From: Bifidobacterium breve
GTDB taxonomy: Bacteria > Actinomycetota > Thermoleophilia > Miltoncostaeales > Miltoncostaeaceae
Reading direction: 5' to 3'
DNA length: 58,439 nucleotides
Assembly (NCBI GenBank): GCA_945876305.1
Contig: CAMCOB010000001.1
Coordinates: 1 to 58,439, forward strand
The notes beneath the pieces were generated by a model. That model searched no databases. It was not told the origin of the DNA and worked only from the letters and a program-made list of their open reading frames with translations. The translations under genes and the position numbers were made by a program. Below, one piece after another: positions 51,861 through 52,861 of the stretch. The first letter of the stretch is position 1. Each line of letters begins with the position of its first letter.

Positions 51861-52445
51861 TCAGGCGGCCGTCCCCCACGGGGCGAGGCCGGCGTCGTCC
51901 AGCAGCAGCCCCAACGCACCGATGGGGAGGCCGATAACGGTGGAGGGCTCGCCCTCAATGCCCTCGATCAACGCCCCGCCTGCGCCCTGCACGGCATATG
52001 CCCCCGCACGGCCTTGCCACTCCCCGCGCCCGAGGTACCAGCGAAGTACCTCATCGTCGATCGGCCGCATCCGCACGGTGGCCCGGGCAAGGCACTCATG
52101 CTCACCGTGAGCGGTCACCAGCACCAACCCGGTCATCACCGTGTGCTCGCGCCCGGCGAGCGCCTGCAGCATGCCGCGCGCATCAGCCTCGTCGGCCGCC
52201 TTGCCAAGTGCGATGCCATTGAGCACCACCTCGGTATCCGCGCCGAGCACAGCGCCGCCACCCGGAATACCCACCCGACCGGCCACGTCGCGCGCCTTGC
52301 CGCGTGCATGGGCCATCACGCGCTCCTCTGCCGGCAGCCCGGGATCGCTGTCCTCGGCCTCGTCGGAGGCCACGACGCGAAACGTGATGCCAAGCGCCCC
52401 CAGCAGCCCACGCCGCTGGGGGGAGCGCGAGGCGAGGATGATCAG
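51861..52445 (-). CDS. maf: Maf-like nucleoside triphosphate pyrophosphatase
   Basis: The Maf motifs GADTEVVL and GAYAVQG lie in the track ORF. The family N-terminal motif [18 protein letters not shown] is encoded in frame upstream of the first canonical start (GTG 52373). A CTG at 52445 overlaps the ndk TGA (CTGA). Confidence 0.85.
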
Positions 52446-52861
52446 CCGAGCAGCTCCGACGCGGCGAAGTGGATGCCCAGCTCGCGCGCGGCACTCTCGG
52501 TGCCGTCAGAGCCATGAATCACGTTCTGACCCAGGTCGAGCGCGTAGTCACCGCGGATGGTCCCGGGCGCGGCATCTTGCGGGTTCGTCGTGCCCATCAT
52601 CATGCGGCACGCGGCGATGGCACCATCGCCTTCGATGGCCATCATCACGACCGGACCCGAGGTGATGAACTCCACCAGCTCGGCGAAGAACGGTCGGTCG
52701 CGGTGCTCGTCGTAGTGCTCCTCGGCGGCCGCGCGTGTCATGACCGTCTTTTTGAGCCCCACCAGCTGAAAGCCGCGGCGCTCGAATCGGGCGATGATCT
52801 CGCCGGAGATCCCGCGCGCGGTCGCGTCGGGCTTCACCATCACAAAGGTACGTTCGATCAT
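52442..52861 (-). CDS. ndk: nucleoside diphosphate kinase
   Basis: [10 protein letters not shown] and NVIHGSD (catalytic His). The ATG start overlaps the upstream stop (ATGA). Confidence 0.95.

Follow-up and report, generated by a model that had tools for sequence, protein, structure and literature searches.

The window analysed here, a stretch of 58,439 nucleotides, comes from an uncultured freshwater actinobacterium of the Thermoleophilia (Miltoncostaeaceae-like) that is known from metagenome assemblies. Between 49104 and 58439 the reverse strand carries, in this order, clpX, valS, folC, a gene for a DZR zinc-ribbon protein, ndk, maf, mreB, mreC and mreD; in relatives, PBP2 and RodA follow mreD. 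maf is inserted between ndk and mreB of an otherwise actinobacterial folC-ndk-mreB arrangement. The ndk product scores 187 bits against Pfam NDK and 205.9 bits against NCBIfam NF001908, and the 3' end of the gene reads ...TCG GAG CTG CTC GGC TGA. Taken from one base before this TGA, the maf frame reads CTG ATC ATC CTC GCC TCG CGC TCC CCC CAG CGG CGT. Direct translation shows the frame running open over the 3' end of ndk, back to an in-frame stop further upstream, and neither the list of open reading frames nor the translation places an ATG, GTG or TTG in it between that stop and GTG 52373. The preliminary description of this DNA had named the same GTG as the first canonical start, and the peptide that it gave for the 24 codons beginning with CTG is exact. 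Its account of the overlap needs correction: CTG and TGA had been said to share three bases, and they share two (TG), so that the genes overlap by 4 nt. The description had also counted 14 canonical ATGA, GTGA or TTGA junctions in the window. With a crude gene list we count 11, and the same list contains four in-frame CTGA junctions besides that of maf. For this reason we rejected the CTGA geometry as evidence by itself; since it is not rare, what carries the signal is that the start-less N-terminus is homologous to that of the family and is conserved. The features discussed below are collected in Table 1.

Table 1. Positions of the maf/ndk junction and of four further start regions in the window.
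Feature	Position	Strand	Basis or remark
ndk CDS, including TGA stop at 52444-52442	52442..52861	(-)	ORF list, Pfam NDK, NCBIfam NF001908
GGAG inside ndk Ser-Glu codons, candidate Shine-Dalgarno element	52454..52457	(-)	sequence
CTG, proposed maf initiation codon, overlapping the ndk stop as CTGA	52443..52445	(-)	sequence, relatives
ATC, maf codon 2 or alternative near-cognate initiator	52440..52442	(-)	relatives
24 codons forming the Maf N-terminus, including Ser8, Arg11 and Arg12	52374..52445	(-)	Pfam gain, pN/pS, AlphaFold, signature
GTG, first canonical start in the maf frame	52371..52373	(-)	gene callers start here, 170 aa
Full maf CDS as proposed, 194 codons and stop	51861..52445	(-)	predicted YhdE-type Maf nucleotide pyrophosphatase
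mreB start region	GGAGG 51759-51755; ATC 51748-51746; called ATG 51706	(-)	relatives
valS start region	GAGGAG 57317-57312; ATA 57306-57304; clpX TAG 57305-57303; first ATG 57252	(-)	
mreD start region	GGAGG 49710-49706; CTG 49697-49695; mreC TGA 49696-49694; first canonical start 49640	(-)	
rsfS region	nadD TGA 37418-37416; ATG 37416-37414; in-frame TGA 37368-37366; GTG 37290	(-)	

The start-less stretch had been proposed to be the family N-terminus of Maf/YhdE proteins, and comparison with Pfam, NCBIfam, PDB and AlphaFold confirms this. The CTG-extended product of 194 residues matches Pfam Maf (PF02545) from profile position 2 to 185 of 187 with 166.2 bits (cut-off 27), whereas the GTG-started product matches only positions 28-185 with 133 bits; the 24 upstream codons thus raise the score by 33 bits, and a match over the whole domain is obtained with the extended frame only. 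The extended product also scores 128.8 bits against TIGR00172 (cut-off 117.15). NCBIfam Maf models align from its residue 2-3, as do PDB chains that include E. coli YhdE and YceF and B. subtilis Maf. The AlphaFold model, for which 45 sequences were used, has a mean pLDDT of 93.3, with values of 92-94 across the first 30 residues, and within the 24 codons it places strand 1 (residues 2-5), helix 1 (9-17), strand 2 (22-24) and the S-x-S-P-x-R-R loop. In E. coli YhdE the Maf signature S-R-E-K-D-K is made up of Ser10, Arg13, Glu33, Lys52, Asp70 and Lys82, the subfamily is defined by Arg12, Thr71 and Gln153, and the R13A mutant is inactive (PMC3899018). The corresponding residues of the window protein, S8, R12, E31, K50, D70 and K82 together with R11, T71 and Q153, are all invariant columns in an alignment of 45 homologues, Ser8 and Arg12 being the counterparts of YhdE Ser10 and Arg13. 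From the profile, the signature and the subfamily residues, maf is predicted to encode a YhdE-type Maf nucleotide pyrophosphatase, a family marked by dTTP/UTP (modified NTP) pyrophosphatase activity. S8, R11 and R12 are all encoded upstream of GTG 52373, and a product started there would therefore be without a core strand and two of the six signature residues.

The evolution of the stretch was followed in a set of 14 sequence-distinct lineages with 64-97% protein identity, for which those at 64-89% were added from metagenome contigs and from contigs fetched via database proteins. In these lineages codons 2-12 of maf have a pS of 0.37 and a pN of 0.024, that is, a pN/pS of 0.064; for codons 2-24 pN/pS is 0.27 with pS at about 0.4. 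The low ratio in codons 2-12 implies that the stretch is translated and constrained. A reading in which Maf truly starts at GTG 52373, or in which the gene is decaying, and the 24 upstream codons are an untranslated relic has in its favour that this GTG is the start that gene callers report. It conflicts with the pN/pS of codons 2-12 and with the composition of the resulting product, which would miss strand 1, helix 1, strand 2, Ser8 and Arg12. In addition, the internal canonical codons of different lineages lie at differing positions. We consider this reading very improbable, and the comparisons lead us to conclude that the 24 start-less codons must be translated and needed for an active enzyme.

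Where the protein begins can be judged from sister lineages. Half of the best 120 database homologues, 60 in number, have gene calls that include the LAS-x-SP-x-R motif. Of these full-length proteins, 47 start as M/V/L-I-x-L-A-S, three residues before LAS. The preliminary description had suggested looking for canonical codons at orthologous junctions, and related lineages indeed carry GTG or ATG at exactly the codon of the CTG. Thus L006 (59% identity) and L100 (63% identity) both have GTG there, with the ndk stop 110 nt and 16 nt upstream, respectively; the spacing between the two genes is 7 nt in L101, a lineage described below, and -4 nt in the CTG clade. These alignments place the CTG at the homologous start position of maf. 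The other 60 of the best 120 homologues are called truncated, at scattered internal ATG, GTG or TTG codons. In a neighbour-joining tree built on the C-terminal region common to all sequences, 57 truncated clusters and the window protein form a single clade with no full-length member inside. (A midpoint-rooted common ancestor of all truncated Maf sequences proved uninformative, as three truncated sequences fall outside this main clade.) The prediction that gene callers would truncate the protein is therefore borne out by 57 database clusters, all those of the clade; the window protein itself is represented by database protein P0001 in its GTG-started, 170-aa form. Every one of these 57 clusters, NCBI records included, is stored without its N-terminus and hence without two catalytic signature residues, and function predictions, structure predictions and family profiles derived from such records will be wrong.

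Within the clade the junction is strikingly uniform. Five species-representative MAGs (Thermoleophilia/Miltoncostaeaceae, 96-98% identity) carry an identical CTGATCATC junction. Codon 1 of maf is CTG and codon 2 is ATC in all 14 lineages, and no clade locus that was compared has a canonical start within maf codons 1-12. The CTG overlaps the ndk TGA in 13 of the 14. In the remaining one, L101, it lies 7 nt after the ndk stop, and the frame is again open without a canonical start; overlap of the two genes is consequently not obligatory. A GGAG is found at the same spacing in 11 of the 14 lineages and is absent in L098, L101 and L104. A more distant sequence, L115 (ENA contig k141_2674660, 1129-1260; 54% identity), reads GCC TGA overlapping CTG ATC CTC CTC GCG TCG, and in the neighbour-joining tree it is one of the three truncated sequences that fall outside the main clade. 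The CTGA junction may then be older than the main clade, or it may have arisen twice independently. The same-strand stop/start pair with its -4 nt overlap is in this way conserved in 13 of the 14 lineages and in L115.

It had been pointed out beforehand that the C of CTGA might be an assembly error; the true junction, misread or misassembled, would then be ATGA or GTGA. Beyond the rarity of such a start nothing favours this notion, and the C recurs in every independent assembly examined, be it one of the five species-representative MAGs, one of several metagenome contigs obtained by different projects or a relative with as little as 54% identity. We rejected it on these grounds, and its probability is negligible.

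The identity of this base deserves attention. The last codon of ndk is variable (GGC, GCC, GTC or GAC) and its third base is invariably C, while A, G or T in its place would create canonical ATGA, GTGA or TTGA, respectively. Eight fourfold-degenerate sites in adjacent maf codons all vary among the same sequences. The invariant C is a single site, and judged from those eight neighbours the chance of finding it unchanged under neutrality is roughly 0.1; its conservation is suggestive of selection for a weak codon. Where the genes overlap, the T and G of the CTG are dictated by the ndk stop, so that conservation of these two bases is not independent evidence.

The uniformity of codon 2 raises the question of whether initiation might take place at the AUC directly after the ndk stop, giving a protein M-I-L-A-S... 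that is one residue shorter. All 14 lineages share the ATC, AUC is similar to CUG in near-cognate strength in E. coli (10.1101/063800), the neighbouring mreB appears to begin at a conserved ATC (see below), and dnaA begins at ATC in Deinococcus (PMC2830850). The conservation of the ATC is, however, explained by the Ile residue that it encodes, as relatives whose preceding codon is a canonical GTG or ATG likewise have Ile at codon 2. Furthermore, the homologous start position is that of the CTG and not of the ATC, and in the window the GGAG is separated by 8 nt from the CTG as against 11 nt from the ATC. Initiation at AUC seems to us unlikely, yet it is the alternative that must be taken most seriously.

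A -1 shift at the end of ndk would produce an Ndk-Maf fusion and remove the need for any maf start. This idea draws on the maf frame being open across the end of ndk, on the conserved ndk-maf synteny and on the fact that both enzymes act on nucleotides. Against it, the junction has no slippery heptamer and the last ndk codons vary (C GGC TGA, C GCC TGA, C GTC TGA, C GAC TGA), which led us to reject a programmed fusion; the CTG of L101 lies beyond the stop, and in L100 and L006 the genes are separated and maf has a GTG start. Nor is there a protein of Ndk-Maf fusion length among the best 120 homologues, or a conserved RNA structure at the junction: RNAalifold found no covarying pairs among 10 lineages, and the z-score of the single-sequence fold is -1.5. 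A fusion therefore has very little to recommend it.

We return to initiation at the CUG. maf combines the absence of a canonical start with coding-like evolution and a homologous start position, as a gene with a near-cognate start would. We propose that initiator tRNA reads the CUG of CUGA as Met, so that the maf CDS would extend from 52445 to 51861. Most ribosomes would probably finish ndk and then reinitiate in place at the CUG, and in most lineages the GGAG within ndk, 8 nt upstream, may also help ribosomes to reach it. Termination-reinitiation at 4-nt overlaps is established for ATGA pairs (PMC10666635; PMC6728339). The lack of GGAG in L098, L101 and L104 favours coupling to ndk; in L101, which has no overlap, reinitiation would have to be short-range and not strictly overlapping. 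With three lineages devoid of GGAG and one devoid of the overlap, no one mode of delivery accounts for every lineage. Relative to AUG, initiation at CUG, AUC, AUA or AUU reaches 0.02-3% in E. coli (10.1101/063800). A weak CUG could tie Maf synthesis to the translation of ndk and keep the level of Maf low. A reason for keeping it low may be that an excess is harmful: in E. coli, overproduced YhdE disturbs the nucleotide pools and slows growth (PMC3899018; PMC4319933). Three elements of this scheme are inferences: that the ribosome starts at CUG rather than at the next AUC, that it gets there by reinitiation, and that the weak codon serves to keep expression low. Taken as a whole, a maf start at the CUG overlapping the ndk UGA, with delivery by termination-reinitiation and a role in low expression, is the explanation that we favour and consider reasonably probable.

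To place maf in context, about 27 genes of the window that have at least 11 start-less codons before their first canonical start were checked against NCBIfam and Pfam. Most proved ordinary; hrcA, hisIE, mreC, lepA, leuS, trpC, trpE, nadD, rne, folC, ndk, rpsT and rplU are compatible with canonical starts, and the four exceptions are mreB, valS, mreD and rsfS. At mreB the order GGAGG, 5-6 nt, ATC GGN... is invariant in 11 of 11 clade lineages, and pN/pS is 0.36 for the 13 codons that separate the ATC from the called ATG. In eight relatives at greater distance this very codon is ATG, which in one case directly follows an in-frame stop. Most likely, mreB starts at AUC, 14 codons upstream of the called ATG.

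In valS, GAGGAG is followed after 5 nt by an ATA that overlaps the clpX TAG stop as ATAG, a codon overlap of -2 nt that is impossible with canonical start codons. The conserved WPARL(E/D)P peptide of ValS is encoded upstream of the first ATG, and ValS family models align 4-9 residues upstream of it. The ATAG junction recurs in a relative at 66% identity, for which the NCBI record calls valS from the ATA. A relative at 78% identity has its ATA in another frame, although a G10 run interrupts the intervening sequence. From these comparisons valS probably starts at the ATA overlapping the clpX stop. As a separate observation on the neighbouring gene, clpX is missing from the called genes of L110:3628-4993 (NCBI GCA_025455865.1), where the frame switches at a duplicated AADFDVKKAETG segment; this looks like an assembly duplication or frameshift and not like biology.

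Another CTGA junction, that of the mreC/mreD pair, is in the frame of mreD and has a GGAGG 8 nt upstream. This arrangement of GGAGG, 8 nt and CTGA is common to the window and a 78% relative, and in a 66% relative the mreC stop is part of a GTGA from whose GTG mreD is called. From the CTG to the called GTG the encoded peptide shows little conservation. A second CTGA start, at mreD, is thus only suggested. The case of rsfS is of another kind. A leader of 16 codons begins with an ATG coupled to the nadD stop by TGATG and is homologous to in-frame leaders in relatives, but an in-frame TGA inside TGAGGAGAC breaks it off. The RsfS domain follows immediately on this TGA, upstream of any canonical start, the next being GTG 37290. 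Relatives at 88% identity (L111-L113) share the TGA. L114, a 77% relative, has AGG instead, but its leader is in another frame. We had considered a simple ATT start for rsfS and dropped it, as homologues exhibit an upstream ATG leader with a conserved in-frame TGA. Readthrough of this TGA and reinitiation behind it are candidate readings.

In 79 model bacterial genomes the annotated starts are ATG (81.8%), GTG (13.8%) and TTG (4.35%), together essentially all (10.1101/063800). Given this near-universality elsewhere, it is striking to see two or three well-founded near-cognate starts in a set of about 50 genes, the sample being a single region. It is possible, and we put it forward tentatively, that the lineage uses near-cognate starts (CUG in maf, AUC in mreB, AUA in valS and perhaps CUG in mreD) far more often than other bacteria usually do and has kept them, on conserved housekeeping and cell-shape genes, over family-level divergence. 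If true, this could reflect a lineage-specific relaxation or exploitation of start-codon selection, for example by way of an altered IF3 or initiator tRNA. An initiator tRNA was sought in the window, whose sole tRNA is Ala-GGC. Frequent near-cognate starts could also reflect selection for weak starts, because any change of the C in CTGA gives a canonical start and none is seen. A CUG start maintained over 54-97% protein identity is, on comparative grounds, a good argument for selection of a weak initiator as opposed to mere tolerance, since sister lineages have a canonical codon at the same place and a canonical codon is only one mutation away. With an AUC-started mreB and probably an AUA-started valS nearby, the lineage could serve as a natural system in which to study relaxed or regulated choice of start codons as well as stop-start coupling with non-canonical codons. 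A near-cognate start at an operon junction is a known kind of thing; what is new is the maf instance, the depth of its conservation, its systematic mis-annotation and the hint of a lineage-wide pattern.

The best-known weak initiators of E. coli are the AUU start of infC, which serves autoregulation by IF3, and the AUU start of pcnB. maf resembles these genes if its weak near-cognate initiator is kept by selection to set or regulate expression. It differs from both in that the codon is CUG and lies at an operon junction, and feedback of Maf on initiation is not indicated.

As a protein, the extended Maf is of the same kind as E. coli YhdE and B. subtilis Maf (PDB 4p0e, 1ex2, 4heb; PMC3899018): it is predicted to have their fold and shares with them the S-R-E-K-D-K and R-T-Q residues and an alignment that runs from residue 2-3 to the C-terminus. 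The genes for those proteins start with ATG, whereas here maf stands between ndk and mreB without a canonical start.

The junction itself may be compared with the ATGA and GTGA overlaps of two surveys (PMC6728339, PMC10666635). In common with these it has a same-strand gene pair, a start one base ahead of the TGA, a conserved overlap and an optional Shine-Dalgarno element inside the upstream gene. Unlike them, it uses CTG, a codon left uncounted in those surveys, one of its lineages has a 7-nt gap, and coupling of maf to ndk is putative.

The closest parallel is found in Deinococcus, where N-terminal proteomics identified near-cognate starts in rpsL (CTG), dnaA (ATC), hppk (CTG) and infC (ATA), that of rpsL being conserved in Deinococcus-Thermus (PMC2830850). 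As in those cases, maf is a conserved housekeeping gene without a canonical start; CTG or ATC alone gives access to its conserved N-terminus, related genomes keep the codon, and earlier annotations have heterogeneous, truncated N-termini. In contrast to the proteomic proof obtained for Deinococcus, the maf start is proposed from sequence comparison, and its CTG, unlike the Deinococcus codons, overlaps the stop of the upstream gene. Finally, Deinococcus has four such genes reported in a whole genome, whereas the present lineage would have at least two or three in a window of 58 kb.
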